A DNA stretch of 64,000 bases from a virus, in the UHGV virus genome UHGV-0311442; one strand, 5' to 3'. Positions 10,301-60,300 of the stretch are shown piece after piece. A program made the translations under genes and the position numbers. A model generated the notes under the pieces. It worked only from the letters and a program-made list of their open reading frames with translations. It was not told the DNA's origin and did no database searches. The number at the start of each line of letters is the position of its first letter. The stretch's first letter is position 1.

Positions 10301-11514
10301 TGCAGTCAAATACTGAAGCCATCAAGTCATTGATTATTGACGCGGCAAACATGGTGGGTGTTCCACCATCTGTTGCGATTGCAATGGCACAAGCAGAATC
10401 TGGCTTACAGTATGGCAACTATCCTGGCGCATCCTCTGGTAGACCGAGAAGTAATAAGATGTCTGCCGCTGGCCTGTTCCAATTTACCAATGGCACTTGG
10501 AATGGGGTTATGAAGCAGTACGCCCGAAGATACGGTATTCCACAAACCGACCAGTTCGACCCGTGGGCTAACGCAATCTTAGGTGTTAACTTCATTAGAG
10601 ACAACATCAAGACCGCACAAAAGGATCTGGGTGGAATTGCCCCACCTCCGGCAGTAGCGTACCTATACCACTTCTTAGGCCCAGGTGGTGGTGCTGAGTT
10701 CCTTAAAGCCTGGAAAACCAATCCTAACGGGTCGCCCGACAAAGTGAAGTACATCACACCTGCCGTTCTTAACGGTAATGAAGGTGTTTTCTATATCATG
10801 AACGGGAAGAAACGCGTTAGGATGCGTACGATCGGTGAGGTTGTCGAGGAACTGAACCGCCGTATGGGTGCGGTTGGAACCAACGAGATTGCAGCAAATC
10901 CTGCGTCTGCGAAAAACATGACGAAAGGGTTATCACCAGTTCCATCGTCTCCTGCAATTGCTGCTGGCGCAGCTAACGATCCGTCTATTGCTGGTCCGGC
11001 AGATAACCTGCCAGCCGCGAACGAGGCGAATCGTGACTCCGCTTTAGCAGACAAAGGTGCGATGGGCGCTGAAGATATTAAAGCTGCAACGGGTGGTGGT
11101 CCGGCTGTGCCGAGTCCTGGCGGTGACGTCACGCCAAGTGATGCGTCTGTCGTTGTTGAAACGGTGGGTCAAAATGCGCGTGCTGACGGTCTGGGCGAAG
11201 AGGAAGTTGCCAAAGTAAAAGAAGGTGCTAGACAGCAAATGGAGAAATCCGCACGTCCTGCACCAACGGTAACGTCTGATGCACAGACTACACCAACAGT
11301 GAACAGTGGTGATCCGATCAGCGTACAGCAGCTGGCGGTTGCAAAAGAGTCTGCGGGCTATCTGAGAGAGATTGTAACAATTCTTCGTCAGAGACCACAG
11401 GCTATGCAGCCATCCCCAGCGACCTCGGCAGCTTCTGCTCCGGGTTCAGCATCACGTAACATCGCGGTTGAACAACCTGCCCGCCAACTCGACGTTGGTC
11501 GTAAACGGGCGTAA
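4348..11514 (+). CDS. Giant virion/ejection protein with transmembrane segments and lytic transglycosylase (SLT) domain
   Basis: 2388 aa, ATG at 4348. Acidic N-terminus (DDFDEIDLDNMDDWDDFDE), poly-basic GRKRRRKRKR, hydrophobic segment cluster (about nt 8420-8710), SLT motif AMAQAESGLQYGN...AAGLFQF...YLYHF (about nt 10300-10790), Ala/Pro-rich tail. Confidence 0.85.
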   Translation: MAKKGKDDFDEIDLDNMDDWDDFDEPPRQQDQSRNPVMDTFRAARKSALSTIWPENKRDQVILKGMPKPAAEAYEGYQNVKAAGQDILAHTKDEIEKTSRVVKMQARQLGPTLKRYLPESVTRKIDKWARNDQIDYGNYDPKQAMMDRELDSVFSGAPQTADQQREAQEGMVEDRLRDTIKDMKSDALFQTVIGIAKDVNLTTSLSRGVLLNVQRKQLELQYRTLFALQDIAKLKQDEFARNTPALEAIVKNTALPDYAKEEFSEIRWANVKRKAAEWMNPLHYADNFIGQIRENAKKKISNIFSDGRGILEQVLGMAQEDDFDMSDSSSLSPDRRNTNSRNKAAGFAGGWLAKRLLQPQIERLQNWTRGELEKNPEVMKRLQLAKYGFGNLSSISNSAIAGETSGPLADLFRLMHDLGLVNPLRRETLALDDRSAESLSAAAKFDRKAYLSITEVIPTLLSEINKSIRRGYGEHHDQVYDLTTRGMVDRKVIGNRVRKAVANDDQRKRLQTYINDTVDFIDKDKTLDRKTRQALADYIESRASEGKAFDVGSLLKDPMHMYRYMNANAVEAIQGVLEARSAELVGGHHELSNAISNKIAAIQSTIRARQDTVDAASVIYGENALRDSGIFKYDAKKDIFEVDKDINDPYTLFNDLSMGKTRSGRSLTREQEIQRKLQNGSALGDYLRRMGAGAEPSFEDKELSNVRGGGKGGRGRGLSARQLAAVLYGEKSTNFVELLSSRPDTNAGLEQQFDRLIDAVRKQPESSIVQDILKHVKNMDEEGILLASLGGSRDDGDEPESSGESGRKRRRKRKRIVLGETGLLRRWAGVLWDTGSGVGRFGKNLFLRGKDRLQALGGFIRGKFSGGSSEGPGVFSRLKGLVTGTLSTGWNSAVAFGKGVLGVRDIYDERGNVVLQGSRLEAGEYYQADPKTEKLIQLKTLDDIKLGRDIVDEAGNLILAAADLAAAGKLRFYKGGKVQALFQYISGKAGTAVNKAVTLPKKLLGFISPKAASLFEKAREWLNEVPEGAEKTRLQSMISRVTGMPARLWNNAKRGFEKLKELASDNPLTRWWQNRKEGGSGGGFSVFSWSNGRKTNHILIRIYKLLNRRLPGEPEDDTWTEQMERNTGASSVKGLFQRAKDIREGFREHFQGFRDWRGRMRDRMSRYRSAVGGRLSRWGGAARDWFDRFRGRASDMVDTFRDPRYDIGTRYRMESRLAGRDDDVAEFYRQHIYARGKVSKTRIIDAAKEDLDTVTDSAGRVINKGKQKARSVGSVLLERLNRMVNLQEMSWFNTMRDSAEKAGASDGLLRTMFSKFGQRNKPPASDEKRDYFQFFRRRRRSKEEEKAKKEAEKKGGKRGVMDFLKGLPLVGPIVSILGTVGSILGKVAKWGIFKPVGFAGKALWNVGKFAVTRLAVPAVSAVATAASAVVTAVGWPIIGLVAAGAALSWFAYKTATRVNAQYLDNMRLAQYGFRDHDEWSSDDGAKARYLEDNLKPYISYTENGQAQLRGLSGDDVKKLAEGFGTNVEDKGEMLAFTAFMLQRFVPIYLRWITALKSMDNDIALADVGNPAKVSKADMLTIFNKMKMTKDAPAFKSLTDPRKVNQGWFSKAWDFVTFTPAEFLSGEEVVEAQDRVFRSINMRRDDKRKETTGAGAVPEGHKVASVAESSQVLAKNDTERNETVAKAEGWEDGTEQVQIQVDWRALPEKKDLDAMESVRWKSYGVKSVNETTRTLFRLLEKEVLKDTDIKNCIYKGDWKKAISAIAPDAIGGPKEERYKNWFYNRFLPVFMTYVYGVKRYVPHADPLDLKLTGGFLYELALMMRGAYNMKGGIRQSVWEIAFNPLGGDANTDAGSVREELATLKELSKEPDLAVRNMLKETPSTPKRMTWKSPATNSSVHQTNEDNKERYKGINSYGEASNDGYLPKGGQSYGTPGDLSQVVGDMGIGNYAKYSTGQSGITLGELQDGDYKSLVTKYPREMLGKPMQSNTEAIKSLIIDAANMVGVPPSVAIAMAQAESGLQYGNYPGASSGRPRSNKMSAAGLFQFTNGTWNGVMKQYARRYGIPQTDQFDPWANAILGVNFIRDNIKTAQKDLGGIAPPPAVAYLYHFLGPGGGAEFLKAWKTNPNGSPDKVKYITPAVLNGNEGVFYIMNGKKRVRMRTIGEVVEELNRRMGAVGTNEIAANPASAKNMTKGLSPVPSSPAIAAGAANDPSIAGPADNLPAANEANRDSALADKGAMGAEDIKAATGGGPAVPSPGGDVTPSDASVVVETVGQNARADGLGEEEVAKVKEGARQQMEKSARPAPTVTSDAQTTPTVNSGDPISVQQLAVAKESAGYLREIVTILRQRPQAMQPSPATSAASAPGSASRNIAVEQPARQLDVGRKRA

Positions 11515-25546: not shown

Positions 25547-25593
25547 AGGTCGGGTAGGGTAATCCCTACCCGAGCCTATTTATTTCTTTTTCG
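25547..25593. terminator. GC-rich hairpin with plus-strand T-run; orientation atypical for the surrounding minus-strand genes
   Basis: Stem CGGGTAGGG/CCCTACCCG, loop TAAT, followed on the plus strand by GCCTATTTATTTCTTTTT; overlaps the 3-prime end of the 498-aa gene. Confidence 0.4.
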
Positions 25594-27076
25594 TCAGGAA
25601 CTTCGGTTCTAGCCCATCGACAGCCATACCCAGAATAGTACGTGCAGTCAATGTACGTTTACCACCTTTGGTTTCCTGGTCTTTAAACATCCAGTATTCT
25701 ACCGTGTTGTCCAGAATTTCATTCCAGTCCCACTTCTCGTCAATCATTTTGTAAATCTCACCCATGCTGAGATGATACTTCATTTCAAGACGATGGTAGT
25801 TGTTTTGCATATAAGCAATTGCCGCCGTGATCTCTAAAGCGCGACGTAAGCGTGCGTTATCAGAAATCATATCACGGATCGTCGTGCGTTGGAATTTCAC
25901 ACCAGGTAGAATGTCCAGTTCTTTGATGGAACCGCCACTACCGCTTGATGTGAAACCAAAGTCTGACTTCTTCAGCGTGTCACTTAAATAGTGCCACAGG
26001 CTCAGGTGATATAACAGACCCATTTCCTGAGAGAAGATCATCTGAAATTTCACACCGGTGTGACCACCCTTCGCACGATACTGGGTAAAGGTGATAATCT
26101 TCAAGTCGTTTACCGACGCATTCATCGCTTTAGAACGTGACGTCGGATAAAGTTCTTCGTTAACACCCGTCTGCGCGTTATAGCTCTGGTCTTTTTTCAG
26201 CTCCCCTGATTTCGTCGCGACGATAAAAGAGTTTGTTAAAAAGCTAAGCTGACGGCGAGGAATACCTGCGAATTTTAAATCGTCGTTGGCATCGTCAAGA
26301 ATTTTCGCATTTGCTTTTTGTGCCTGACGACCACCTGCCATCGCTTTCCCAGAGTCATCGGCCATCTGTGCCACGAAGCCCATGTAAAAACCACCGCGTG
26401 CAAACGCAGACGGCCAGCGGCTCATCATATTCGATTTTTGCAACGCGTCGTGGGCGTTCAGGATGTTCTGATCAGAATCCCCAATATCCGTTTTTGCGTG
26501 CTTGTCTTCCAGCGAACTGGAATGCCACTCTGACAGGGAGTCGATAGAATAAAGCCAGGGGTCCAGGATTTCTTTTAACTTACGACGAACCGGATCGGGG
26601 AACGGTGTTACGCGGGTTTTACCAGACATATACTGTTTGAAGCGTTTTTCAACTTCATCACGAATATAATCACTGTAATACTGTTCCCCAGGCATTACGT
26701 CAGAACCGACCAGGTTATAACGACCTTCGTGGATAAGCTCCAGTACGGATGTTCCGTCGTCGATACCGTTGGCGTTCATGGCAGAGATGTACCCAGTTTC
26801 TAAACGATCGAGGGCAGCGGACACTTCTGTATCGTACTTAGAACCCCACTCTGCTTTATAACGTTGCAGGATTTGGAAGATACAGAAATCTAACAAGGTG
26901 GATTTAAAGGTGTTACCGCGACCTGCGAAACCCATGATGTGGGCAAAACCACCGTTAAGGTAGTACAAACCATCTTCACCTTTTTCGTAGTTACCTAAGG
27001 CATGATCCATGATGGTGTAAACGTTAAAACGTGGACGAATTACTTCACCGATAACTTGCTTAGTTGGGCCTGCCAT
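25580..27076 (-). CDS. Hypothetical protein (498 aa)
   Basis: Long ORF with ATG start; AGRGNTFKST resembles a P-loop but is not a canonical Walker A. Confidence 0.6.
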   Translation of the reverse strand: MAGPTKQVIGEVIRPRFNVYTIMDHALGNYEKGEDGLYYLNGGFAHIMGFAGRGNTFKSTLLDFCIFQILQRYKAEWGSKYDTEVSAALDRLETGYISAMNANGIDDGTSVLELIHEGRYNLVGSDVMPGEQYYSDYIRDEVEKRFKQYMSGKTRVTPFPDPVRRKLKEILDPWLYSIDSLSEWHSSSLEDKHAKTDIGDSDQNILNAHDALQKSNMMSRWPSAFARGGFYMGFVAQMADDSGKAMAGGRQAQKANAKILDDANDDLKFAGIPRRQLSFLTNSFIVATKSGELKKDQSYNAQTGVNEELYPTSRSKAMNASVNDLKIITFTQYRAKGGHTGVKFQMIFSQEMGLLYHLSLWHYLSDTLKKSDFGFTSSGSGGSIKELDILPGVKFQRTTIRDMISDNARLRRALEITAAIAYMQNNYHRLEMKYHLSMGEIYKMIDEKWDWNEILDNTVEYWMFKDQETKGGKRTLTARTILGMAVDGLEPKFLTKKK

Positions 27077-27489: not shown

Positions 27490-28245
27490 ATGAATGTAAA
27501 TCCACTTGCAGCGTTATCTAGCTTCGCCGCTAAAGCGTCTGCAATCTTACCGAAAGGGTTTAGCGGCCCTCAACAAGAGATTGCATTAACCACTTATGAC
27601 GAGATGTCGGACGTTTCCAAGTGGATGCAACAAGAAAAATTCCTACACTTTGCGGGAATGTTGGTTATCGTTCCACCAGGGTTTAATACCTACGTGATGG
27701 ATCATTTGAACCGCTTAGAATCTGTATGGAGTTCACTACAAAACATCTATACGGGTATTCTGCTACCGGTCGATAAACAACTTTCGGCCCTTACACATGA
27801 TGTGGGGGTACTGTCATTACCGATTGGTTTCCGTTACAAAAACGTTAATTTGCCGTTACGTAATGTTAACCCGAAAGACCTGGTTAACTTATTAGCGAAA
27901 TCGTACACTAATAACGTTATTGACCAGCGACCAATTGAGAAGACGTACCACAGCGCGTCTGAGATTGACGTTGCGTTCAATCGTGCTAAAGCCCTGAACG
28001 TTGAAATCACAAAACGTCTACGGACGAACATCGACAAGTCAATCGAGTCCATTCGCACTACGTCAGAAATCTTGTCCGAACAAAACATTCATCCGAATGT
28101 AGCAAAAGAACTGACGATGATGTTAGATTTTGCATCCGATTGGGTGGAGCTGTTTGGTTTGTTCATGAAACAGGTTAACGAGTTAATCGAATGTCTGAAC
28201 GTTACTGCCGAACGCTTAAAAGCGCTTAAGGCAAACAAAAAATAA
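27490..28245 (+). CDS. Hypothetical protein (251 aa)
   Basis: Isolated plus-strand ORF with ATG start, followed by a bidirectional terminator. Confidence 0.55.
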   Translation: MNVNPLAALSSFAAKASAILPKGFSGPQQEIALTTYDEMSDVSKWMQQEKFLHFAGMLVIVPPGFNTYVMDHLNRLESVWSSLQNIYTGILLPVDKQLSALTHDVGVLSLPIGFRYKNVNLPLRNVNPKDLVNLLAKSYTNNVIDQRPIEKTYHSASEIDVAFNRAKALNVEITKRLRTNIDKSIESIRTTSEILSEQNIHPNVAKELTMMLDFASDWVELFGLFMKQVNELIECLNVTAERLKALKANKK

Positions 28246-28298
28246 AAAAGTAAAGTTACCCCTAGACCACACGGTCTAGGGGTAAACTATTTATTTCC
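28236..28298. terminator. Bidirectional rho-independent terminator
   Basis: Stem CCCCTAGACC/GGTCTAGGGG, loop ACAC, A-run upstream and TAAACTATTTATTT downstream. Confidence 0.7.
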
Positions 28299-29190
28299 CA
28301 CGATAAAATCCAGAAATGTAACTCGGCGCTATCCATCGCCATTCGCGCCAGCGCATTTCTGACATTTTACCACACCATACACGCTTCCAATGCGCACGAC
28401 GGATATGTGCGGCGCAATAAATCGCCAAACAAACCTCGTGTCCTTCCTTGCGTTGCTGCTCTATATCTTCCCATTGTACCGGACTTACGTCTAAAACGAC
28501 TGCTTCACTACGTGGGCGAATTTCTGTATCAGGAACATAACGAATGGACCTTCCGCGAAATTCTTTTTTCTCGCGCTCAGTTCGTTTAATTCGTGATGAA
28601 AGATATAACCCGATGTAGACGGCGTCGAGTAGTCGCTGATTCTCCTTAACCGAAGTAAGGAGCGGCTTTAACTCCACGAAATCATCATTACTTTTATCGA
28701 TCGTGTAAATCTCAAACTCCATGTATACCGACTCGTCATGTTCTTCGCATGACATCACAAAGAGAACTTCTTCACCTTCGTAAAGACGTCTTCCGATAAA
28801 TAACGTGATCGGACATTCGTCGAGATTTACGGTAACCGAGAAAGTAAATGAAGGGATGGTTTCTATCCAGAAGTACGGGATATTTTTTAGTCTCTCAGTT
28901 TTTGCTAAGAGTGCCATCAGTTCTTCATCCGAGATGATTTCAACAGCAGCGTATTGCCATCCTAGTCCCAGGGACTGCTTAATCAGTCTGGGAATCTGTT
29001 CGGTAACGCCATACTCACGATAGGTCGGATCTTTAACTGGCATAAACGTTACAGGTATTTGACGTTTATGCTCGTTAATGAACCGAATAAAGCGGCACTG
29101 ATCCAATCCGTGAATTGTTTGGTGTGCCTTTTCTATCTGTTCGCTCATGCGTCTTAGCGCTTTCCCGTAAAGTCTATTATTCGTTGTCAT
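28291..29190 (-). CDS. Hypothetical protein, paralog A of a tandem pair sharing a C-terminal AHIRRAHW motif
   Basis: Start refined to ATG at 29188-29190 (AGGAGC upstream), about 300 aa. C-terminus CAAHIRRAHWKRVWCG...WREWRWIAPSYISGFY matches the neighbour's AAHIRRAHWRRYWVGP...LYWIPPTFVRGYV. Confidence 0.6.
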   Translation of the reverse strand: MTTNNRLYGKALRRMSEQIEKAHQTIHGLDQCRFIRFINEHKRQIPVTFMPVKDPTYREYGVTEQIPRLIKQSLGLGWQYAAVEIISDEELMALLAKTERLKNIPYFWIETIPSFTFSVTVNLDECPITLFIGRRLYEGEEVLFVMSCEEHDESVYMEFEIYTIDKSNDDFVELKPLLTSVKENQRLLDAVYIGLYLSSRIKRTEREKKEFRGRSIRYVPDTEIRPRSEAVVLDVSPVQWEDIEQQRKEGHEVCLAIYCAAHIRRAHWKRVWCGKMSEMRWREWRWIAPSYISGFYRGK

Positions 29191-29215
29191 TTTAATGCTC
29201 CTAAACACTTTTAGC

Positions 29216-30142
29216 TTAATTGTGGGGTACGTAGCCACGGACAAATGTCGGTGGAATCCAGTAAAGTTTTCTCTTCCTTTCACCATTTCTAGGACCGACC
29301 CAATATCTGCGCCAGTGCGCGCGACGAATATGTGCGGCCTTGGCGTGTTTGATACCTTCCATGGTTTTCAAGTCAGTGTTAAACCCTTTTAGATAATTCA
29401 CTTGTCCTGGCGTGATATCTATCTTAACATCGCGTTCACGAGGTTTAACGTCGTAACTAATACTACCGTTCTTTTTGATTTCCTTGAACTTAATATCATT
29501 AAAAGACTCCCTGTAATTAGGCGGGATTAGCGTACAGAGAAATATCAACGATATGGCGGTTTTGGCCAGTGATAGCCATAACGTCTTCTCTTGTTCGGTC
29601 TGTACGCCAGTTGTATAATCGATTTCAACAAGCCCGTTTCCAACACTACATATCTCTAACGAGCAGGTGGCGATCGTGGTAACGCCTTCTGTTAACCCGT
29701 AATCAGTATTTGTAGCAATTATAATAAACCTTCTATTCCCATTTTTTCGATAACCGAGAAAGAAAGTCTCATCTTCTTTACCTACATCGATTGCTACAGT
29801 CCAAGTAGGTATAAAGTCTAACCACTCTTCAGGGAATTTACTGGGCATCTCAGTCTCGAAAACAAGTTCTCTAAGTGCTCGATTGGATATTAAGGAAGCG
29901 CCCCCGTATAGCCATCCAATTGCCAATGTTTGTGCGTGAAGGGAACGGGGATCTTTGAGACCTAACTCAGCGTCGTATGGTATAAAGGCATTAGTTAAAT
30001 GCTTACGATTCTTTTTTATCCATTTCGAGACGGGATTTTCTTTTGTTTGATTTTCTTCCATGACATTTTCTAGATGCTGACTCCCCATTTGTCTAAGGCA
30101 GTCTTTAATACCTTTTACTTTTTTACTTTTGTACAAATACAT
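29216..30142 (-). CDS. Hypothetical protein, paralog B of the same pair
   Basis: 308 aa, ATG with AGGAGA upstream; shares an internal LGWQY/IGWLY segment and the C-terminal motif with paralog A. Confidence 0.6.
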   Translation of the reverse strand: MYLYKSKKVKGIKDCLRQMGSQHLENVMEENQTKENPVSKWIKKNRKHLTNAFIPYDAELGLKDPRSLHAQTLAIGWLYGGASLISNRALRELVFETEMPSKFPEEWLDFIPTWTVAIDVGKEDETFFLGYRKNGNRRFIIIATNTDYGLTEGVTTIATCSLEICSVGNGLVEIDYTTGVQTEQEKTLWLSLAKTAISLIFLCTLIPPNYRESFNDIKFKEIKKNGSISYDVKPRERDVKIDITPGQVNYLKGFNTDLKTMEGIKHAKAAHIRRAHWRRYWVGPRNGERKRKLYWIPPTFVRGYVPHN

Positions 30143-32536: not shown

Positions 32537-33205
32537 CTATCTAAGAATATTTTTAGCGAAAAAAGGATCGACTGTAAACTCCTTCACCTGTGAGTCATAA
32601 CCCGAATGTATTTGATCGCTACTGAGCAAATACTGGTCTAAATCGTGCGGAAGAATCCAAGAATCGCCTTGCTTAAAAATACCATAATCTGCTGTTCCTG
32701 CGGAAAAAATGATTTCCTCTGGAAACGAATAGATGTGGCGTAAGGCAAGATCGGATGGCTTTAACACGATTAATCGAACGGGATGTTGACTGACTGCCTC
32801 TTTAATAAACTGTTCACGATTAAACCAAATTATTTTTTCGGGGTAAGTTTCGAATTCAGCCCATGTCCGCGTGATAACTAATTTGGAAATCTTTCTCAAT
32901 TCTTCAGAATGCTCTGCGTAGCCAATACACTCCTTGCGTACTTCATGATTTTCTACCGATGCTGTGAATTTTTGGAATAGGTGTTGTTGGAAAAAGCCGT
33001 TCTCCGGGATATCACAACCCGCGTTGTATAGTGCAATGATCTCCCACAACAACGAAAGAGAAAACACAAATGCTAACTTTTCCACCACTTCCCAATCTTC
33101 GGAGTAAGGGGCTTTAAAGCCCCAATACTGCCGTGCGTTATACATAAAGTGAGTTTGTAAAAACCGGGGGGCTTTTGACAAGACCTCACTATAAACGATC
33201 AGCAT
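32537..33205 (-). CDS. Hypothetical protein (222 aa)
   Basis: ORF overlapping the upstream RNase H fusion gene by a few nt. Confidence 0.5.
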   Translation of the reverse strand: MLIVYSEVLSKAPRFLQTHFMYNARQYWGFKAPYSEDWEVVEKLAFVFSLSLLWEIIALYNAGCDIPENGFFQQHLFQKFTASVENHEVRKECIGYAEHSEELRKISKLVITRTWAEFETYPEKIIWFNREQFIKEAVSQHPVRLIVLKPSDLALRHIYSFPEEIIFSAGTADYGIFKQGDSWILPHDLDQYLLSSDQIHSGYDSQVKEFTVDPFFAKNILR

Positions 33206-34719
33206 TCAAGCTCCTTATCCGTCAGTATTCGTTTGTTTGAATAATAGCCGCACCACAACCCATGATATTTTTCCCCGATATAAACCAACGCATATTCGAT
33301 ATACTGCCGTTCTGGACGCCGTACCGCCACGTAGAAACGCCCTTCTGGTTCTTTCATACGGTTGATTTCCGTACGCGTCGGTATGTCGATACCACGAGTA
33401 AGGATAGTTTTAACCTTGTTTTTGCTACCAGGGATATGGATAGTTACGTCAAAACCTTTATCTACATTACGATAAAAGTCTTTCTTCGGCTTACCCTTCT
33501 CATCGTAAAGCAGGTCAGTAATGTCGTTCATTACGACTGAGTTTTTCCCCTCCATGGCATCGCGTAACCAACCTGCAAGCTCATCACGAATCGTAATGCA
33601 GCGATAAGACAATAACGCGGGACGAAGAATTCGTGTAATCGAAAGATCTTCAAACATCCATAGGTTTTTGTCTTCGCTAAAATGCATCCGATCGACAGGA
33701 ATACCGTTAGCTGCGGCTTCTGCGAACTTCTTACGTTTTACGAATAAGTTAAAAACAACGGCGATGGGATCAAACTGACGTAAACGGGGCACCCCTTCCC
33801 ATGCTTTCGCAGAGTGGGTATTTACCAACTCGTATACGTTGTTCCATGGTTCTTTGGTAAACATTACGCAGAATTGTGCGTCTGGAATGTACTTACCAAC
33901 GAAGACGATATCGTCCTTCTGTTTTGCATGGTTCCCACCGAACATGTAATAAAGTTTATTACCGTTAACTGTAACCGTGGGATGCGGTTCGTTCACCATC
34001 GGGTAACAGAACTTCGTAACACAGATATCGGGAAAAGCAGACAAATTGACACCTTCACCAACAACTTCTGGTTGCTGTTCTTCCTCAGGCATCTCGTCTT
34101 TTGACCAATACGGTGTATAGTCTAGCCCCTCACCTCGAGCCGAGATACTTGAACCTTTCCGTGCTAACTCGTCGGCACGCTCGTTTCCATAACGCCCTGA
34201 GTGACCTTTAATTTTAAGGACACGAACGCCTTTCCCTTCTTTCTTTAACCGCTGTTTAACCTCCCACATCCGTTGGATTAATTCCAAATTCGCAATGGGT
34301 GTGCCGTCCGCACGACGCCAGCCGCGTGCTGCCCAACCATCAATCCAATCGTTATACGTGTTGACAACGTAAGATGCGTCGATATAGATAACATAGTTTT
34401 TGGCAACGAAAGGGGCGTGTTCGAAGACGGTCAGGAAAGCCACGAGTTCTGCAACGTCGGAGTGTGACATTTTTGGTACAGGCACAACACCGTCAATAAA
34501 CTCCACGGTTTCTGGTAAAGGTGGAAGTTTTTCATCCTTGTTTATCTGGCGGTATCCTGACGTCGTAATCCCCTCGGGAATAGAGGGATGGCGGTAAACC
34601 CGACCATCCTCAATCGTTTCACGATTAAATAAGTATCCATGAATCCCCGCTCCTGTACCGAGCGGGGAGGTCAAATGGCTACCATCCGTGTAAATTACTG
34701 CAACATCAACGTTCTTCAT
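33199..34719 (-). CDS. Ribonuclease HI domain fused to a 300-aa C-terminal domain of unknown function
   Basis: 506 aa. N-terminal about 200 aa carry RNase HI motifs in order: AVIYTDGS, SDVAELVAFLTVFE, IYIDASYV, WIDGWAARGWRRADGTP, IKGHSGRYGNERADELA. Remaining 300 aa unassigned. Confidence 0.75.
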   Translation of the reverse strand: MKNVDVAVIYTDGSHLTSPLGTGAGIHGYLFNRETIEDGRVYRHPSIPEGITTSGYRQINKDEKLPPLPETVEFIDGVVPVPKMSHSDVAELVAFLTVFEHAPFVAKNYVIYIDASYVVNTYNDWIDGWAARGWRRADGTPIANLELIQRMWEVKQRLKKEGKGVRVLKIKGHSGRYGNERADELARKGSSISARGEGLDYTPYWSKDEMPEEEQQPEVVGEGVNLSAFPDICVTKFCYPMVNEPHPTVTVNGNKLYYMFGGNHAKQKDDIVFVGKYIPDAQFCVMFTKEPWNNVYELVNTHSAKAWEGVPRLRQFDPIAVVFNLFVKRKKFAEAAANGIPVDRMHFSEDKNLWMFEDLSITRILRPALLSYRCITIRDELAGWLRDAMEGKNSVVMNDITDLLYDEKGKPKKDFYRNVDKGFDVTIHIPGSKNKVKTILTRGIDIPTRTEINRMKEPEGRFYVAVRRPERQYIEYALVYIGEKYHGLWCGYYSNKRILTDKELEC

Positions 34720-34721
34720 TC

Positions 34722-35456
34722 TTAATCCCTGGTTAATTGATCACGAATCTGCGGCGCAACATACTCGCCAGTTTTCAGTTCTTCGTGACAGGCTTTGGCG
34801 CGTTCAAACCCGTATTGGCGGGTGACCAAAGCGAGGTGATAAATACGTGCCGTAGTGTAGGCTTCTTTTGCTGCATCCCACATTGCGTGGTGCTCAAAAG
34901 CGGGCTTACCGCGCGTCCAATAAACTTGCTCTACCGTTAAGTCGGGTTCGAAACCAAACGCAAAAGCTAAACGCTCTGCGGTACGATCGCTATCTAACGC
35001 GCTAAATTTACGGAACTTCCCTGGCGGGATATCGCATTGTGCGAATGCGTTCATGAAAACCGGCGCATCGAAGTCGGGACCGCGCATGGTAATAACAAAC
35101 TCATGCTTTGCGGTGATCTCTCCGAGCCATTTTTGCATCGCCCACAGCGCGTCTGGCAATGCTGTTGTTCCACCCCAGGCTTCTTCATACGCTTCACGAG
35201 ATGGTGCGTATTCGGGTTCACCTTTACCTTCCCACCAACCAACGGTTTGTGGGTCTTCGTGGAAAATGGCTTTTGCTTTAGGATCGTTAGGATCAATACG
35301 GATGTATGAAGAACCGACCATTTTCAAGGTAGGGACGTCAAAAGCCACTAAACCTGCACTCAACAGATAAGCATCAGGACGTAACGATTTGGTTTCTGCA
35401 TCAGCACCAATAACCAGTGTCGGTGTGTACGGGGTGACAATTTTTGGGTAGGTCAT
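34722..35456 (-). CDS. DEDDh 3-prime to 5-prime exonuclease, oligoribonuclease-like
   Basis: 244 aa; Exo I LVIGADAETKSL (DxE), Exo II PDFDAPVF, Exo III HHAMWDAAKEAY (H-x4-D), resembling Orn/RNase T family. Confidence 0.6.
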   Translation of the reverse strand: MTYPKIVTPYTPTLVIGADAETKSLRPDAYLLSAGLVAFDVPTLKMVGSSYIRIDPNDPKAKAIFHEDPQTVGWWEGKGEPEYAPSREAYEEAWGGTTALPDALWAMQKWLGEITAKHEFVITMRGPDFDAPVFMNAFAQCDIPPGKFRKFSALDSDRTAERLAFAFGFEPDLTVEQVYWTRGKPAFEHHAMWDAAKEAYTTARIYHLALVTRQYGFERAKACHEELKTGEYVAPQIRDQLTRD

Positions 35457-35495: not shown

Positions 35496-35542
35496 ACGTT
35501 AAAAAGAAAGACCCTCCTGTACCACGAAAGGGTACAGGAGGG
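35496..35542 (-). terminator. Rho-independent terminator (minus strand)
   Basis: Stem CCCTCCTGTACC/GGTACAGGAGGG, loop ACGAAA; A-rich run on the plus strand upstream. Confidence 0.6.
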
Positions 35543-35546
35543 AGTG

Positions 35547-36005
35547 TCAGTACAAACACGATGTCAAGTATTGGTTATACGAATCGAGCAGTGTCTGACG
35601 GTCGGAACGGTAATTCCACAACAAATTATTGAGTTTACGCGATAAATCACGGCTAATCTCTTGGGGCGTTAAAGAACTTTCATCAAGAGATAAGCGTTCA
35701 GGTACAACATGTAACTTCGGTAACTCATAACGTTCACAAAGTGGAGCCAGCATTGGTGGGCTCCAGCCACGTTTAACGGCTTGTTGGTTTAAATTTCGGG
35801 TGTAGACATAAACGTAGTAAGCATAGGTGTTGACATCCGCAACATACTCACGCATTGCATTATTGTCAATTTTCCAATTCACCATTATTGGCGGTGTAGG
35901 AGGAAGTTCCAGTGGCCTATAAGCTGGACGTTTAACTTCGTCGCCGTAGCTATTACTCACCAACCCCACGAACACCATCATGATGAATAACAGCATTTTC
36001 ATCAA
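35547..36005 (-). CDS. Secreted Pro-rich protein with N-terminal signal peptide (152 aa)
   Basis: N-terminus MMKMLLFIMMVFVGLVSNSYG then PAYRPLELPPTPP; no lipobox Cys. Confidence 0.5.
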   Translation of the reverse strand: MMKMLLFIMMVFVGLVSNSYGDEVKRPAYRPLELPPTPPIMVNWKIDNNAMREYVADVNTYAYYVYVYTRNLNQQAVKRGWSPPMLAPLCERYELPKLHVVPERLSLDESSLTPQEISRDLSRKLNNLLWNYRSDRQTLLDSYNQYLTSCLY

Positions 36006-36534: not shown

Positions 36535-37908
36535 ATGTTAGACTTACAAGGTTTTATTCAGATACCGGCACTGTTTGACAATCAGGACGGCGTCACCGCT
36601 CCGGTGGGCGAGCTGTCGGATTTGACACTCTCGTACGCGAAGAGTAAACAGACGTTTACTAAAACCAATTTGCAAGTTCAATTGGTGACTTTTACGTCTA
36701 AACGAGAAAAACAGACGGTTGTTGTGCCAGCCGAGTTTTCTGATCATATTCTAACCGTTTCTCAATGGATTTACCAGCAAGCCATCTTGGGGAATCTGAG
36801 AAATGACGAACTCGAATTCCAGCGCCTGTTATTAGGCCAATTCCAATCAACCATTTCTGGTGTTCAGTCTGGTGCGATGATACAGACGAACAGTAACTGG
36901 TTCCCACGTTGGGTGAGCTGGAAATATGAAGTAACGGCAGATCAAGTACAAGATGACACTGATGTAGATAATCAGATCATTGTTTGGTTCTCGGATGAAG
37001 ACTTCGATCAAGATTACACAGGGTTCGAAATCGAAGTACAGATGCCGATTTCACCAATCGACACATTTTTGTCGACCAAGTCAGTCGTTGAAAAGGCGAT
37101 GGAAGGGTTTAACCTTACCGAACACCATAAGAAAATCAATGAGTTAATGGCAGGGTTTCCTTACACCGCTATCCAAACCAACTACTATACTTGGCACGAT
37201 CAAGAAAACTACGAGTCCACCCTAGTTGTCCCAATGTCGGTTATTATTTACGGACGTGCGGGGAAAAACCCAACGAAAATAAAGCAGGCGTTGCGAGAAC
37301 ATATTCTCGCTAATTCCAGCTTTACTGTCCCTGTCGGGGTAAAAGTATTTCCCGAGATTTTCACTACCACGAAATTTACAATTGTTCCCGGATGGAAAAT
37401 TCGTGGAATACCCAATGAGGAAGATGTGGCGGCGCTTTATTCCCCCATCCTTCCATATGATTTCTGGGTCAAAGCTATCAGTCGGTTTGGAGAATGGGCA
37501 GACCTGACGGTAGCAGAAAGAAATACTAAAACGATCAGTAAACCTACAACAGACGTAACTGACTTACCAACAGTTTATAAATCATTAAACTGTGTTGTAA
37601 TCAGTGGGCCGGAAAACGATACACGGAAAGCGACCTTACACGAAACTATCCCGGATTATGCGTTAATTGCGACGACTAACCCTGATATTGCGCGTATGTC
37701 GAAAACAACGACCGAATGGTTGGCGTTATTCTTCCAGGCACTTATTGCTGCGGAAGAATACCACCCGTATCAAACCAGCTTAGATGTTGTAAAACTGGTC
37801 GATGAGGCCGACCCTGATAACTACTTCTGGGTGTTTGAATACGACAACGTAGAATATCGTATCCTGTCTCGGAAAGCGAAATGGTACACCGAGTTAGACG
37901 AGGAGTAA
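36535..37908 (+). CDS. Hypothetical protein (457 aa), plus-strand island
   Basis: ATG at 36535, 25 bp from the divergent minus-strand gene start. Confidence 0.6.
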   Translation: MLDLQGFIQIPALFDNQDGVTAPVGELSDLTLSYAKSKQTFTKTNLQVQLVTFTSKREKQTVVVPAEFSDHILTVSQWIYQQAILGNLRNDELEFQRLLLGQFQSTISGVQSGAMIQTNSNWFPRWVSWKYEVTADQVQDDTDVDNQIIVWFSDEDFDQDYTGFEIEVQMPISPIDTFLSTKSVVEKAMEGFNLTEHHKKINELMAGFPYTAIQTNYYTWHDQENYESTLVVPMSVIIYGRAGKNPTKIKQALREHILANSSFTVPVGVKVFPEIFTTTKFTIVPGWKIRGIPNEEDVAALYSPILPYDFWVKAISRFGEWADLTVAERNTKTISKPTTDVTDLPTVYKSLNCVVISGPENDTRKATLHETIPDYALIATTNPDIARMSKTTTEWLALFFQALIAAEEYHPYQTSLDVVKLVDEADPDNYFWVFEYDNVEYRILSRKAKWYTELDEE

Positions 37909-37911
37909 TGA

Positions 37912-38535
37912 ATGGCTACGCGTTTACCACTCCAGGTACCGGTCAACACCACGGGACTGTTCAAAGTAAAAACACCATTTACTTTGGCCGAGACGGTCAT
38001 TTATACGGTAGAAGCGTCACGTACCTTCCCAGATTTAGTACGTCAGAATATTGACGTTTATAACTCGTATTACCAGCCAGTAGGGCTAGGACGTGAAGAA
38101 TATTTAGCAGATGCGAATGTTAGTGCGTCGATTCTGACATTTAAATCTCGGGACGGTCAAGTTGTATATATACCTGACACCTACCTGGAATCATACCCAG
38201 GTTTATCCGGGATCACGTATCAACGAAATGTGTTAGTGGTAGATTTGGCACTGGTACCGGATTACGTGAAAGTGTCGTCTATAACAAAAGACGTTTCAGA
38301 TATTCTCACGCATACACTAGGGATTGAGCCGAAAGTTGAAATTACAACACTCGAGTATGAGGGGAAGGTAACGGAGGAACAACACTTGCAGATGGAAGCG
38401 GCACGAAAAAATAAAATTCGTGAATCTATTCCATTAGGTGAGAAAGTTGCTGCGTTGACAGAAGAGAACAAAAAATTAAAAGAGTTAAACAACCAAATGT
38501 TAGAGATTCTTAAAGCTAACGGGTTAGTTAATTAA
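37912..38535 (+). CDS. Hypothetical protein with C-terminal coiled coil (207 aa)
   Basis: ORF 3 nt after the previous gene; C-terminus EENKKLKELNNQMLEILK. Confidence 0.55.
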   Translation: MATRLPLQVPVNTTGLFKVKTPFTLAETVIYTVEASRTFPDLVRQNIDVYNSYYQPVGLGREEYLADANVSASILTFKSRDGQVVYIPDTYLESYPGLSGITYQRNVLVVDLALVPDYVKVSSITKDVSDILTHTLGIEPKVEITTLEYEGKVTEEQHLQMEAARKNKIRESIPLGEKVAALTEENKKLKELNNQMLEILKANGLVN

Positions 38536-44020: not shown

Positions 44021-44200
44021 CTAATTCCGCCATTCGCATTCGCGTTGACGCCAAATTGAACCCCACGATAGTTTAATCAGATAAGATGAAACTACCCATA
44101 AAATCATCACCACACAAAACATGACATAAAGAACCGCTAGAATGGACATGAAGCCAAACCCTGCCGCATCCACAATACGACGGAACCAATCAGTTTGCAT
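44021..44200 (-). CDS. Small membrane protein (59 aa)
   Basis: ATG at 44198-44200 with AAGGAG upstream; hydrophobic core FGFMSILAVLYVMFCVVMILWVVSSYLI. Confidence 0.4.
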   Translation of the reverse strand: MQTDWFRRIVDAAGFGFMSILAVLYVMFCVVMILWVVSSYLIKLSWGSIWRQRECEWRN

Positions 44201-46694
44201 AAACAATTTTTACTCCTTCGTTATACACCGCAGGCAATGTCACCCCTTCCGGTTCGATGACACAGTACGATGCTTCATTAAGTTTAGAATGAACCTCGGC
44301 TTCGTGGGAGACTACCAACAGTTGTGAAAATTCTCCTGAGTTTGCTAACGTTTTAATAAAGCCGACCAGGTTGTTACGGTGCTCCTCATCCATGCCCTCC
44401 GAAGGTTCATCCAAAAGCAACGGAAACTGATGCAACTTCAGCGCTTTGTACGCAGTCAGTCTGAACATCAGATTAAATATCGCACGCTGCGCCTTTGACC
44501 CTTTACGCACGTCAGGAACAGGCTCAGGATGCGTTTTTAGCTGGACAGGAAAAGTATAATCCAAATCGCCGTCAGTGAGATCACAAGGCATAACACGCAT
44601 GGGGTACGTCCAGACCTGTTCGATATAACGCGTCATTAACTCTGTGATTCTAACGATAGCGTTGTAAAAATACTTTCTAAGTACACCCTTTTCTGGCGAG
44701 AAGGCTTGAATCATCAGTTTGTTATTGAACTGCTGGGCTTGTAAGTCAGCAAGTTCGCGTTCCAAACTGTTGAGCTGGTTCAATTCATTTTCCATCTGAC
44801 GATAACGTTCGCGTGCGGTTGTAAAAGCATCCAGCTTCCCTTCTCGTGTACGTAAGAGTTCCTCGACGACCGTATTTGTCAACGTAACCTTAACGTCACT
44901 CTCTAACCGTTCGAATAACGCACTGAAATCATCTACAGCACGTTTAACATTCACTAGATAGGTAAGTGTCGTGTTAGCCAGTTCGTGCTCTCTACGACGC
45001 ATTGAGAGCATCTCTGTGGCTTTACCTAATCGCGACTGTTGGAAGGCGATCTTTTGTTGTAAAGCACCATCGACGTTACCAACGGCCGCTACGGCATCCT
45101 GCCATTCTTTTTCCGCCTTCACTAACCGTTGTCTGGTTTCATGGTACTCAATAGCAGAGTACAACTCACCGTCAAACGCTGCGCATAGACTCCCGAACTG
45201 CTCGCGAGACTCTGTGAAAACGTTACGTTCTTGCAAACGCTTAAAGAACATACTCAAAACAGGGTCCTTTGAATACGTCAGTACAATCTCACGAACCTGC
45301 CGCATATAAGTTACATCAGATTCTAATTCAACACGATCGCGTAATAAGGTCTCTAACTGCGTTTGCAGTTCCGTGCGCTGCTGTTGCTGTCCACGAATCG
45401 AAGACTCAAGTTCAGGCAAAGAACGCGTAACGCCTGGTCGAAACTTAAACCGACACTGCGGACAATCCACTTCCGCTGTTTCTAAGTAGTGGTTACGTTC
45501 GTGATTTAAATTCTGTAAAACGTTCTCCACTCGCTGGAGTCTATCCCGCAACCCGGCGGTTTTTTGATCCATCACCAGAAGCCGTTCTTCCAAAACATTG
45601 AGTTTTTCGGTCGAATGAATTGCGTCCAGCGTTGTTCCTAACCGTTGTCCCCAAACACGCGCGTCGGTAGCCGCACGAAGTTGGTCTAAATTGACGTTAT
45701 CGTTAAATAGACCCGGAAAGAGATGTTCAGTGTCCCATTTGGTAAGTAACTCACGTAAACGTGCCAGCGTATTCTTGAGACCTTCGTGATTCCGCATCAG
45801 GTAGTCCTGTCGTGTCGACTCATCCATCAATAACGACAAGTCTTTATTCAACATCGATACCTCTGTTTCAGTAGACACGACAGCTTCGCGGGCGGTCGCC
45901 TCGTTTTGTCGTGCGACCTGTATCTGTTCATCAGTAGGCAGACCACCACGATGTTGTAATATTGCGTCGATGGTTGGACCCAAGCTGTTTAATGACGCTT
46001 GGATTGTTTCGATGGTGACGCCGCGATTTAATCCTGGCAACTGTTCGATTTCTCGGTTCAGTTCACGTAAATCCGATTCCAAACCTTTTAATCTCGTCGC
46101 TAACTGCTGCCGTTCTTCCTCGTTCTCAATAACACGCGTCCGTAATTCGGCGATCTTACGGCTGGTGATTTCAATACCCCCATTTAAGGCAGTAAGGTTT
46201 TTACGTAAACGTTGATAAAACCCTAACGCGTAAGTGAGGTCAGAGGTGCTTAAACGGTAAAACCACTTGCGACGTAATTCGGTTCCCGCATCGGTTAACA
46301 AGACCTCACCATTTAATAGTTCTTTAATTTCTTTCGTAATACCCGTGATTTCTTCAACACGGGAGTTGTAGACTTTCGCATTACCTTGCTCGACGATCTT
46401 TGCCCCCGTGGTCAGGTTCTCAATATCACAAACCAAAGAGTTGCCTTTACGGGCAACTTTGAATCGATAGCGTTGATCGCCGACTAAACAGTAATTCGTG
46501 TAAGAACCGCCGTCCCTGAATTCAGTTTTAGCTGGTGCTAAGGGTAAGAACACAGACAGTAGACTGGTTTTCCCGCAGCCGTTCCCACCCAGGATAATTG
46601 TTGTTGGAGACTGGATAGTGAAATCGAAGGTTTCAATTTCATGTAACCCCATCCCCGTAAAACCTTTGAGTATAATGCGTTCAACTTTTAGCAT
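44190..46694 (-). CDS. Rad50/SbcC-like ATPase with coiled coil and CxxC zinc hook
   Basis: Start refined to ATG at 46692-46694 (GGAGGTG upstream; track start is TTG at 46769). Walker A GGNGCGKTS, long coiled coil with central CPQC, C-terminal LLLDEPSEGMDEEH and VVSHE. Confidence 0.75.
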   Translation of the reverse strand: MLKVERIILKGFTGMGLHEIETFDFTIQSPTTIILGGNGCGKTSLLSVFLPLAPAKTEFRDGGSYTNYCLVGDQRYRFKVARKGNSLVCDIENLTTGAKIVEQGNAKVYNSRVEEITGITKEIKELLNGEVLLTDAGTELRRKWFYRLSTSDLTYALGFYQRLRKNLTALNGGIEITSRKIAELRTRVIENEEERQQLATRLKGLESDLRELNREIEQLPGLNRGVTIETIQASLNSLGPTIDAILQHRGGLPTDEQIQVARQNEATAREAVVSTETEVSMLNKDLSLLMDESTRQDYLMRNHEGLKNTLARLRELLTKWDTEHLFPGLFNDNVNLDQLRAATDARVWGQRLGTTLDAIHSTEKLNVLEERLLVMDQKTAGLRDRLQRVENVLQNLNHERNHYLETAEVDCPQCRFKFRPGVTRSLPELESSIRGQQQQRTELQTQLETLLRDRVELESDVTYMRQVREIVLTYSKDPVLSMFFKRLQERNVFTESREQFGSLCAAFDGELYSAIEYHETRQRLVKAEKEWQDAVAAVGNVDGALQQKIAFQQSRLGKATEMLSMRRREHELANTTLTYLVNVKRAVDDFSALFERLESDVKVTLTNTVVEELLRTREGKLDAFTTARERYRQMENELNQLNSLERELADLQAQQFNNKLMIQAFSPEKGVLRKYFYNAIVRITELMTRYIEQVWTYPMRVMPCDLTDGDLDYTFPVQLKTHPEPVPDVRKGSKAQRAIFNLMFRLTAYKALKLHQFPLLLDEPSEGMDEEHRNNLVGFIKTLANSGEFSQLLVVSHEAEVHSKLNEASYCVIEPEGVTLPAVYNEGVKIVYAN

Positions 46695-46772
46695 ACCCAC
46701 CTCCATAAAGACGGAGTGTGGTGTAAAAAGAAAAAAATAAAGAAAGGGAGAACCCGAAGGTTCTCCCAAACG

Positions 46773-57331: not shown

Positions 57332-60300
57332 ATGGCTGTCGTCCTAGACCCACACTTCAAAAAACCGGGGAATAAAATAACCGGTGAAGCGGTCGCCGTC
57401 TTTGGTACGAAATACCGAATGTTGGTACCTGCCCACGCCCCTTTTTTCACCACATCCCTGGTGGTCAAGAGCGGCGGCAAAACACTGACCATAGGCGACG
57501 ATTACGTTATTACGCACCCGTACGAGACCGGTATGTTGCGCACAGCCTATCTCATTCACGGGATGATTTGGATTGTTAATGACAAATACAAATCGAATTT
57601 TACGGTAGATTACCACGCCGTTGGTTGTGGTCAGGCTACCCAACAACAGATTACCGCAGAACGCGAACTCAATAAAGATAAATACCCGTCTGCGTGTCAG
57701 TGGGACACCGTCATCGGGGACGTTTACTTTCCACCGGTCGATATCCAGTTCGATTGGGAGAATTGGAAAGGTGAACTGGAATTAATGCAGGCTATTGCTG
57801 GATTAGGCGATTCGTTAGGGGAAGTCGTGAGTCGGCTTAACCCCATCGCACGCAATACCCTGGATTTAGAATACCGTGCTAATAGCAAGGTTATCACTTC
57901 CGAGCAGTATGCCGTATACGACAATAAAGGTGGCTTCACCTACAACACTGCCCGTCATCGTTATAGCTTGAGTTATAAAACTGCAACCTTTAACGACTAC
58001 GCCCTGTCAGTGAAACACAGAATTCCTGCTATTCTGCCAGACATGACGAAATTGAATCCAAACGAACAGATCGATTGGATGCTCTGTTATGCTAACGGCG
58101 GTGCAAGTATTCTACGGCTGCAGCTAAAACAGCGCAAAATCTCACTGGTCTTAACGGTCGCTATTGGTAGCGGTTCAACAAACTACGATTATACGTTAAT
58201 CAACGGCTTAACTGACGATGAGTTAAAAAACGATATCGATTTTAGTGTAACCCGACAACCCGGAAACGGTGTTTACGTCATCGTAGTAAAAACAAATAAA
58301 CAGACCATGGATTACACATTCAATGTCGATACGCCGCCTGATGAGTTCTCGGCAGGGTATTCGAAAACGGATGTTGCTAAATGGTTGAAGTTTAAAACGA
58401 ACATTAATTTAAACTGGTATGCGGCCGAAAACGATTATATTCAAATTCGTTCTTTACCCGGCGCACCAGAACCTGACATCGATAACGATGTTTACCAGTT
58501 AATAGTCAAATACCATCAGTTAGTTGAGCAGCTGTATCGTAACGCGCCTGCACACGAACACGTTACACGTAAGGACAACCCGCACACCGATACGTGGGGT
58601 CCGATCCGTGCGTTAGAGCTGAATGGTATTGCGACAGATGCCGCGTTAGCTTACGGGAAGACGAAACAGCAGTTAACGGATTATGTTAATGCTAAGTACC
58701 CAACACAAGCAACGTTAACCGCACAGAAAAAACTGCTTCGTGAATCGCCGAGCAAGAACGTTAACGGCACGATTACCACACTTCCGGGTTTTACTTCGTT
58801 CACGACGGAAGTTGATCCGGTCTCGATGTCGAAATACGTGAGTCCTTATTTTAGCGAAAGCTATGTTAGTAGTGGTCACAGATATCACGGCGCGCTTCGT
58901 TATACAGGAGCGAAAAGCGGTTTCAGTGCTAACTTTAATGCAGTGCCTGCCAACCTGCAAGATATTGACTTTATTGTTACTGGACGTAAAACAGCGTCTG
59001 GTAATGAAGCGGTCGGTAGGGTTGGTTTACGTTTCTACGAAAATCCTGGTAGTAACTCCGGTAAGTACGTAGAGATTACCGGTGAAGTCTGGTCCGGTAC
59101 TCTTACTATCGAACTGGCGTTGCACGGTTACGGTAGTCCGGTACCGGCAGTTCGGTATATTTCACAAGCTCCTAACCCGGCAATACCGGATGGGGATTTT
59201 ACGCTACGTTTTCAACTGAAGCGTACAGGGAATGTGTTTGACGTCGTTATTACCGTAAACAGTAAAACGTATAGCGGTAGGATTAACTTCAATAACATGG
59301 ACGCTGCGTTAGAAGCATTAGAGAATCAGCACCACTTTAAATCGCTGATCAATAATGTTGCCGACGCCGTTACCATTAGTTCGCAAAACAAAGGTAACAC
59401 GGTTACCATTAAGAAAGCACCGGATGTTGTTGACGAGACACGTTTAGGTGCCCAGTTTGTTGTTGATCCGAAATCCATCAAGTTTATTGGCCAAGGTTCA
59501 ACTGATGTTAACGTGGCTAACAACCCCGTAACGTTCCAAGCAGGTACTAACCAGCTTGTGCTATACCCCGATGACCGAGGATTGTTGTGGCGTGGTAAAA
59601 AACTCTTAGACCCCACCACCGTAGCCCCGTATCTGCCAGGCAATACCGCAGGTGGCACAGGTTTATTCTACGCAAGTTCGACAACAACGGTTACGATCAC
59701 CGGTAGCGGGATAAAAGCCTCGCCGTTCGTAGCGACCTTTATTCTTCCTACCGCGACCGATACAACAGCTCTGGCAGCTTGGCAGTTGACCGATGAGTTC
59801 GGTACCGCTGAAAACCTTGCAGCAACGCCAGCACTGATTGAAAAACTCGATGCGGAGTTCACCGGTAAGTTAGTTGCAGTTAAATCGTACATTAACGACA
59901 TGCAACTTACCAGCTCGGTTACTATCGATAAGATTACCTTTGGTTTAGGTAACGTTGCGAATACGCCTGATGTCGATTTACCGATTTCTACAGCACAACG
60001 TGCGGAGTTAGATAAATACTCGCCTAAAGTTCACCAACACCCGTTTACCGCTTTTGGTACAGGGAACGCAACCACAGCGCAACGTGGTCTGATTAAATTT
60101 GGTCTGGATGTGGATGATGCGACTTTAGCACTCGATGGGAGTGTGGTAATGGCGCAGACTTCCCAGATTGAAAAATTGGAGCGCGCTGTCAGCGGTGTTG
60201 ACTCGGAGGCACGTCTTGACATTATACGTTTTGGTGAGTCTGGTAACGACTTAATAGACGTTACGGTCAAAGACAAAATTCTGGTCACGCTTCCAGCTTC

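Follow-up and report, generated by a model that had tools for sequence, protein, structure and literature searches.

Predicted Rhc polymerase subunit and DexA-family exonuclease encoded side by side in a phiKZ-like jumbo phage

How nucleus-forming jumbo phages replicate DNA with no recognisable sliding clamp has an explanation in Rhc: its clamp-derived domain is an integral part of the polymerase complex, and its RNase H handles primers and R-loops in a compartment that excludes host enzymes. Reports of 2025-2026 describe Rhc as a third subunit of the split DNA polymerase in Chimalliviridae, one that is essential and is imported into the phage nucleus. The phiKZ protein, gp155 (phiKZ155, or Nlp2), is an essential nuclear protein and a bona fide RNase H, encoded by a gene of the core set of nucleus-forming phages (PMC12571901), with its import being dependent on Imp1 (10.1101/2024.03.27.586873). 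The name Rhc (RNase H-clamp) was coined in a preprint of October 2026 (PMC13648687), which presents the phiKZ DNA polymerase (DNAP) as a DNAP-N/DNAP-C heterodimer joined in the complex by one Rhc subunit. There, cryo-electron microscopy finds the clamp-derived domain bound to DNAP and DNA, Rhc and the polymerase thumb hold the emerging duplex, primer extension is strongly boosted, and the RNase H domain is flexibly linked. For phage Goslar, both RNase H activity and the clamp-derived domain are described as required (PMC13648698), with Rhc also supporting late transcription, probably via R-loop resolution. In phiKZ, catalysis by the RNase H is dispensable. The subject here is a predicted orthologue of Rhc, and the exonuclease gene that immediately precedes it, in a stretch of 64,000 nucleotides (nt) of virus genome UHGV-0311442, referred to throughout as the window.

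A preliminary description of the window had singled out two adjacent leftward genes, one for an RNase HI fused to a domain of unknown nature and the other, directly upstream, for a DEDDh exonuclease. Both open reading frames (ORFs), their coordinates and their adjacency are as it had them. The gene pair and the parts of the first protein are as follows (aa, amino acids; pI, isoelectric point; pLDDT, the per-residue confidence of a structure model).

33199..34719, minus strand: rhc gene, 506 aa (ORF list; PHROG 3265; phiKZ gp155/Goslar_00246 homology)
34135..34719, minus strand: RNase HI domain, residues 1-195 of Rhc (Pfam PF00075; PDB sequence matches; alignment A1)
34054..34134, minus strand: acidic, low-confidence linker, residues 196-222, GEGLDYTPYWSKDEMPEEEQQPEVVGE, pI 4.05 (model pLDDT; alignment A1; composition)
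33202..34053, minus strand: sliding-clamp-like domain, residues 223-506, pI 8.85 (predicted fold)
34722..35456, minus strand: gene for a DexA-family DEDDh 3'-5' exonuclease, 244 aa (Pfam PF16473; PHROG 255; AlphaFold2 model)

Comparison of sequences identifies the 506-aa protein as Rhc, the polymerase subunit of nucleus-forming jumbo phages, and as a diverged member of that known family. PHROG 3265, 'ribonuclease', covers the whole of it (E-value, E, 1e-169), while BLASTP aligns residues 5-494 with phiKZ155 (E 1e-30) and residues 68-497 with Goslar_00246 (E 6e-26). Goslar_00246 is probably the Goslar Rhc, an equation of our own since the gene number is not in the Goslar abstract. With tblastn, identity is 63-66% in Erwinia phage Asesino (gp226, 66%) and the Salmonella SPN3US/SPFM group, and there are full-length matches at 22-26% in phiKZ-like, PCH45-like, Phabio, RSF1 and other jumbo phages, with a single place of match per phage genome. 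The combination of RNase H and clamp is near-universal among 130 cluster representatives, and both rhc and the exonuclease gene are conserved, far beyond chance, in dozens of phage and metagenome sequences. (A mis-joined or chimeric origin of the 506-aa ORF was considered and rejected, as some 50 homologues have the identical architecture.) Gene order is also pertinent. A UvsX-like gene (25580-27076, phiKZ152), rhc (phiKZ155), the gene for a virion protein (36535-37908, phiKZ157), a DUF7194 gene (37912-38535, phiKZ161) and then an SbcC-like gene (44190-46769) follow one another as they do in Goslar 243-249 and in Asesino, and the window shows synteny with the gp146-gp182 part of phiKZ.

The RNase HI core that had been proposed is well founded. 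The motifs quoted for it are present, and Pfam RNase_H (PF00075) matches residues 81-190 at E 5e-21 (75.8 bits against a cutoff of 25.8). The catalytic set is carried by YTDGSH (D12), AELVA (E91), YIDAS (D114), KGHSG (H173) and NERADELA (D183). Across the 46 full-length homologues of alignment A1, E91, D114, H173 and D183 are invariant and D12 is at least 90% conserved, the exception being a sequence truncated at its N-terminus. In the BLASTP alignment D114 pairs with D102 of phiKZ155, a residue whose replacement, D102N, gives a catalytic-dead mutant (PMC12571901). An insertion of about 45 residues between strand 1 and helix A has its counterpart in phiKZ gp155. When full-length Rhc was searched by sequence against PDB, RNase H domains were the only matches, those to RNase H1 of E. 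coli, Thermus and human being at about 1e-11. The linker that follows varies in length and sequence in alignment A1, and pLDDT is 51-73 over the first 30 residues of the structure model.

For the C-terminal half the outcome is mixed. Its 311 residues have no Pfam match, clamp families included, at E up to 1, so that, at the level of sequence, the absence of recognisable motifs had been correctly perceived. The domain is not an unknown one, however: structure prediction gives residues 223-506 a sliding-clamp-like fold, with the resemblance to clamps at fold level only, and Rhc orthology points the same way. A known replication accessory domain was the first of the findings that the preliminary description had named as telling against its proposal, and the C-terminal half is such a domain. 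By orthology the C-terminal half is to be equated with the clamp-derived, DNA polymerase-binding domain of Rhc, and the modelled clamp fold, which was obtained before the comparison with the literature, agrees independently with the published Rhc papers. A different conception, that the C-terminal domain is mainly a targeting and maturation module concerned with nuclear import and maturation of the nucleus, with its clamp resemblance an evolutionary relic, is very improbable. Cryo-electron microscopy and primer extension for phiKZ (PMC13648687), and genetics for Goslar (PMC13648698), put the clamp domain on polymerase and DNA, and arrest of maturation is accounted for by failed genome replication. 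A side observation is that several short proteins match the clamp-like domain only, namely BFVD I1VX43 (233 aa), P0143 (233), P0106 (291), P0165 (290) and P0172 (328). These may be stand-alone clamp-like subunits lacking RNase H, or the result of split or truncated gene calls.

On analogy with the orthologues, the clamp-like domain would bind, as a single subunit, to DNAP-C of the split B-family DNA polymerase, and together with the polymerase thumb would grip the emerging duplex with a consequent boost to synthesis. Within the phage nucleus the tethered RNase H would meanwhile strip RNA from RNA:DNA hybrids on the template, whether primers or R-loops. That the RNase H has primers or R-loops as its targets had been suggested earlier, in keeping with the orthologue work (PMC13648698, PMC13648687). 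At the present locus the structure of the genes, the catalytic residues, the folds, the homology and the synteny are shown directly; polymerase binding, processivity and nuclear import would be carried over to it from the orthologues. Overall, we are confident that the window has the rhc gene of a phiKZ-like phage, with RNase HI, linker, clamp domain and a role with the polymerase, accompanied by a DexA-family exonuclease gene.

The product of the upstream gene is, from its domain matches and model, a DexA-family DEDDh 3'-5' exonuclease with its activity a prediction. Its presence directly upstream had been recognised. It matches Pfam PF16473 (Rv2179c-like 3'-5' exoribonuclease domain; E 4.9e-11, 43.1 bits against a cutoff of 27) and PHROG 255, 'exonuclease' (E 7.5e-43), to which T4 DexA itself belongs at E 2.4e-22 and 3.6e-91, respectively. 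The DEDDh set is complete, with D19 and E21 (the DxE of Exo I), D130 (Exo II) and H189-x4-D194 (Exo III). Among 24 homologues (alignment A3) H189 and D194 are invariant and D19, E21 and D130 at least 90% conserved; one divergent sequence lacks D19 and D130. When the AlphaFold2 model (pLDDT 91.3) was compared with PDB by Foldseek, the top matches were T4 DexA, 8kel/8ken (E 1e-7, TM-score 0.55-0.64), next RNase T (2.4e-7), then exonuclease I, 3'hExo and Orn (E 2.4e-5). Alignment of the exonuclease family with DexA by hhalign extends over 107 N-terminal columns (E 2.5e-5, 75% probability), with T..WW and RG..FD.PI common to both. The view that the enzyme is closest to Orn and RNase T is thereby partly upheld, in that RNase T is the next structural neighbour, and partly displaced, since T4 DexA is closest by Pfam, PHROG and structure, and there is no match to Pfam RNase_T (PF00929) at E up to 0.1. 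Nor is there an NCBIfam match. The label 'putative endodeoxyribonuclease' that GenBank gives to homologues in the Asesino/SPN3US group, whose Rhc is entered as 'putative ribonuclease H', is unsupported, the protein being a DEDDh exonuclease.

In T4, DexA scavenges host DNA to mononucleotides and carries out 3' resection in intron homing (PMC12153337). With regard to the latter, the Goslar record (L018:21818-22246) annotates a group I intron beside a phiKZ179-like gene, a sign that homing, one of the roles of T4 DexA, is active in this phage family. A further observation concerns Erwinia phage RAY, where gp64 (L009:13675-14427), named 'putative exodeoxyribonuclease VIII', is a DexA-family exonuclease by PF16473 and PHROG 255. 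Its gene is near that for thymidylate synthase, not beside rhc, and the protein, as 'putative exonuclease', is cytoplasmic (PMC10299810). As similarity between RAY gp64 and the window exonuclease clade is weak by hhalign (probability 16%), the RAY localisation is a lead rather than a test. Nothing relevant was found in the literature on phage exonucleases of the Rv2179c-like type or on nucleases of SPN3US.

Whether the exonuclease has to do with Rhc depends on how their adjacency is viewed, and for this two more features are needed.

32537..33205, minus strand: orf222, 222 aa, downstream of rhc (ORF list; PHROG 9472, of unknown function, E 2e-13)
35512..35542, minus strand: intrinsic terminator-like hairpin (terminator scan; 12-bp stem with 8 G-C pairs, followed by a T-run)

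The hairpin sits in the 90-nt gap 5' of the exonuclease gene and appears to mark the start of a new transcription unit of exonuclease, rhc and orf222. From the sequence, the exonuclease stop codon (TAA) is 2 nt from the rhc ATG, and this spacing together with the strong terminator upstream implies that the two are co-transcribed. The orf222 ATG and the rhc stop share 7 nt (ATGCTGA), so that orf222 is probably co-translated with rhc; it has no Pfam match, and its placement after rhc recurs in Asesino (gp227) and on metagenome contigs. Scans of the neighbourhood for tRNAs and for Rfam families (the latter over 27-40 kb) found nothing, and short plus-strand ORFs within the gene-pair region are without support. 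Sigma-70 promoter-like sites were fewer than in shuffled sequences, for which reason no promoter is claimed. Upstream of the terminator, a 152-aa ORF (35547-36005, minus strand) weakly resembles phiKZ156, with E 0.004 from a search of a small database. In phiKZ, phiKZ156 is co-transcribed with phiKZ155 (PMC12571901), while in the window the phiKZ156-like ORF and rhc are split by the terminator and the DexA-like gene.

Homologues of the exonuclease were found in only 66 phage records, from Seoulvirus, Erskinevirus, related Erwinia, Cronobacter and Proteus phages and Vibrio pVa-21-like phages. In Asesino, SPFM19 and pVa-21 its gene immediately precedes rhc, and coordinates give the same arrangement for at least 15 further records. 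No exonuclease gene adjoins rhc in phiKZ, PCH45 or Goslar, where other small genes take that position. Given this, and the location elsewhere of the RAY family member, the linkage is clade-specific; it is compatible with co-expression, but cooperation between the two enzymes does not follow from it. Ranked first for the exonuclease is a generic role. It would most likely be a metal-dependent enzyme that shortens single-stranded DNA and short oligonucleotides from a free 3' end, an expectation for its substrate that is borrowed from related enzymes. In that role it would trim 3' ends during recombination and repair, and would turn oligonucleotides back into mononucleotides from which phage DNA can be made.

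An alternative that is decidedly unlikely has the exonuclease as a clade-specific partner of Rhc and the DNA polymerase in the phage nucleus. It might degrade RNA or DNA oligonucleotides freed by RNase H, thereby substituting for the excluded host oligoribonuclease, or it might be a trans-acting nuclease for 3' editing or trimming at the fork. The 2-nt spacing and co-transcription downstream of a strong terminator fit such a partnership, as does retention of the adjacency down to about 33-46% exonuclease identity, Vibrio phage pVa-21 included. That the Pfam family includes the exoribonuclease Rv2179c, and that RNase T and Orn are structural neighbours, also fits. However, these genomes are broadly syntenic, making adjacency alone weak evidence; Rhc manages without an adjacent exonuclease in phiKZ, PCH45 and Goslar; and the RAY PF16473/PHROG 255 exonuclease is encoded elsewhere and cytoplasmic (PMC10299810). 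With a trans-proofreader in mind, an exonuclease domain of DNAP-N was sought by comparing PHIKZ082 with Pfam and with PDB sequences, and no match resulted. Asesino, the nearest relative, has a PHIKZ082 homologue, and the second polymerase subunit is not adjacent to it. More doubtful still is the specific proposition that in the branch of SPN3US, Asesino and pVa-21 the exonuclease has been recruited as a fourth, nucleus-imported accessory of the Rhc-polymerase, clearing the oligonucleotides left by RNase H or trimming 3' ends at the fork.

Scavenging in the manner of T4 DexA, whereby host-DNA fragments in the cytoplasm would be reduced to deoxynucleoside monophosphates for phage replication independently of Rhc, is another contender and is on balance unlikely. 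The Pfam family, the PHROG and the best structural match are common with T4 DexA, the RAY family member is cytoplasmic (PMC10299810), and the presence of a thymidylate synthase gene in the window shows investment by the phage in nucleotide supply. Yet neither Asesino, with the same gene pair, nor RAY causes noticeable degradation of host DNA (PMC11724907), and the exonuclease gene is within a replication/recombination block, not with genes of nucleotide metabolism. The generic role, with trimming of 3' ends and recycling of oligonucleotides, thus retains its place ahead of both partnership with Rhc and host scavenging.

The preliminary description had also raised the prospect of the enzymes degrading nucleotide signals of host immunity. 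In this conception the pair, or the exonuclease alone, would destroy the second messengers of CBASS, Pycsar, Thoeris or type III CRISPR, and it is barely credible. DEDDh exonucleases require a free 3' end, with its hydroxyl, and the known immune signals are cyclic or ADP-ribose-derived. The fold of the exonuclease is DexA/RNase T-like and unlike those of ring nucleases, of Acb1, which is a 2H phosphodiesterase, or of Apyc1, which has a metallo-beta-lactamase fold. A search with PADLOC, a library of defence systems whose coverage does not extend to anti-defence proteins, gave no match for the gene pair, and a replisome role suffices to explain the RNase H partner. What can be said in favour is of a general nature. 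Very short oligonucleotides are substrates of DEDDh enzymes of the Orn kind, Orn being a weak structural match (E 2.4e-5), and nucleus-forming phages are exposed to RNA-sensing or signalling defences (10.1101/782524).

As to the identity of the phage, the window belongs to a phiKZ-like (Chimalliviridae-type) jumbo phage not described before, with Erwinia phage Asesino and Salmonella phage SPN3US among its relatives. Compared with GenBank phages by megablast, the 2.3-kb region gave no match, which implies a species or genus different from the Asesino/SPN3US relatives and meant that identification had to go via proteins. Metagenome contigs, the longest of 177 kb, carry proteins 99% identical in an identical local gene order. 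Neither a chimallin gene nor the genes for the split DNAP-N/DNAP-C are within the 64-kb window. In Asesino, ChmA is gp039 and a chimallin nucleus has been demonstrated (PMC11724907). Other features of the window are:

2699-4318: virion RNA polymerase beta-like subunit (of the phiKZ-type multisubunit RNA polymerase)
4348-11514: giant tail lysin or fibre, 2388 aa
16298-17332: thymidylate synthase
25580-27076: UvsX-like recombinase
44190-46769: SbcC-like protein
57332-61654: virion protein, 1440 aa

Two adjacent ORFs of the leftward block that contains rhc also deserve mention, 28291-29286 (minus strand, 331 aa) and 29216-30142 (minus strand, 308 aa). Both match PHROG 6160 (E 2.6e-19 and 1.7e-37, respectively) and they are probably paralogous. 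The 308-aa ORF has an equivalent on a metagenome contig that is nearly identical, and this equivalent has a precomputed match to Pfam PF26125, 'AcrVA2-like', and a Pfam scan of the two window ORFs themselves found nothing; they may be anti-CRISPR-like. Close by, a hairpin with a perfect 13-bp stem (28256-28285), scoring as a terminator on both strands, is between the convergent ORFs 27490-28245 (plus strand) and 28291-29286 (minus strand).

As Rhc was characterised in 2025-2026, the gene pair is real but largely explained, and the DexA-like neighbour is a small addition. What the window contributes is an Rhc orthologue 24-25% identical to the studied proteins and 66% identical to that of the nearest sequenced phage, in which the catalytic residues, flexible linker and clamp fold are all retained. 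The DexA-type exonuclease gene that is co-transcribed with rhc, and upstream of it, in one large branch of the family is not covered in the literature found. If the exonuclease and Rhc were to cooperate, it would be an extra replisome component; otherwise it is an ordinary accessory nuclease.

Comparison with other known systems shows what is shared at each level. Like T4 DexA (8KEL/8KEN), the window exonuclease has PF16473, PHROG 255 and the DEDDh residues, at 244 aa as against 227, though identity in the structural alignment is about 18% and the hhalign similarity is significant over the N-terminal 107 columns only. Neither degradation of host DNA nor use of 5-hydroxymethylcytosine DNA is known for the phage of the window, and the DexA-specific roles may not transfer. 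RNase T and Orn have the DEDDh fold in common with it and are fold neighbours only. The RNase H domain of Rhc aligns with E. coli RNase HI at the catalytic DEDD and H residues and also over the basic protrusion (WxxxWxxRGWxxADGxP), a motif within the PDB matches at about 1e-11, but in Rhc the RNase H is a domain of a larger protein, scoring a sub-threshold 65-69 bits against NCBIfam RNase HI equivalog cut-offs of 160-170.

The clamp-like domain of Rhc has no sequence similarity to any Pfam clamp family when set beside the monomeric clamp-fold processivity factors (herpesvirus UL42, UL44, BMRF1 and PF-8) and the ring clamps (PCNA, 9-1-1, T4/RB69 gp45 and beta clamp), and Rhc is not by sequence a member of any clamp family, those of the ring clamps PCNA, beta and gp45 included. 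Unlike UL42-type and ring clamps, it is fused to RNase H, and no clamp loader is known in Rhc-carrying phages. With phiKZ gp155/Nlp2, PhiPA3 gp176 and Goslar Rhc the two-domain architecture, at 482-508 aa, is common. The catalytic residues, the insertion in RNase H and the genomic neighbourhood of phiKZ gp155 and Goslar_00246 equal those of the window protein, though it is only 24-25% identical to them and its linker is longer and acidic. Closest among sequenced relatives are Asesino, with gp226 and gp225, and the SPN3US group, in which Rhc is 63-66% and the exonuclease 63-67% identical and gene order is identical to that of the window over some 13 kb.

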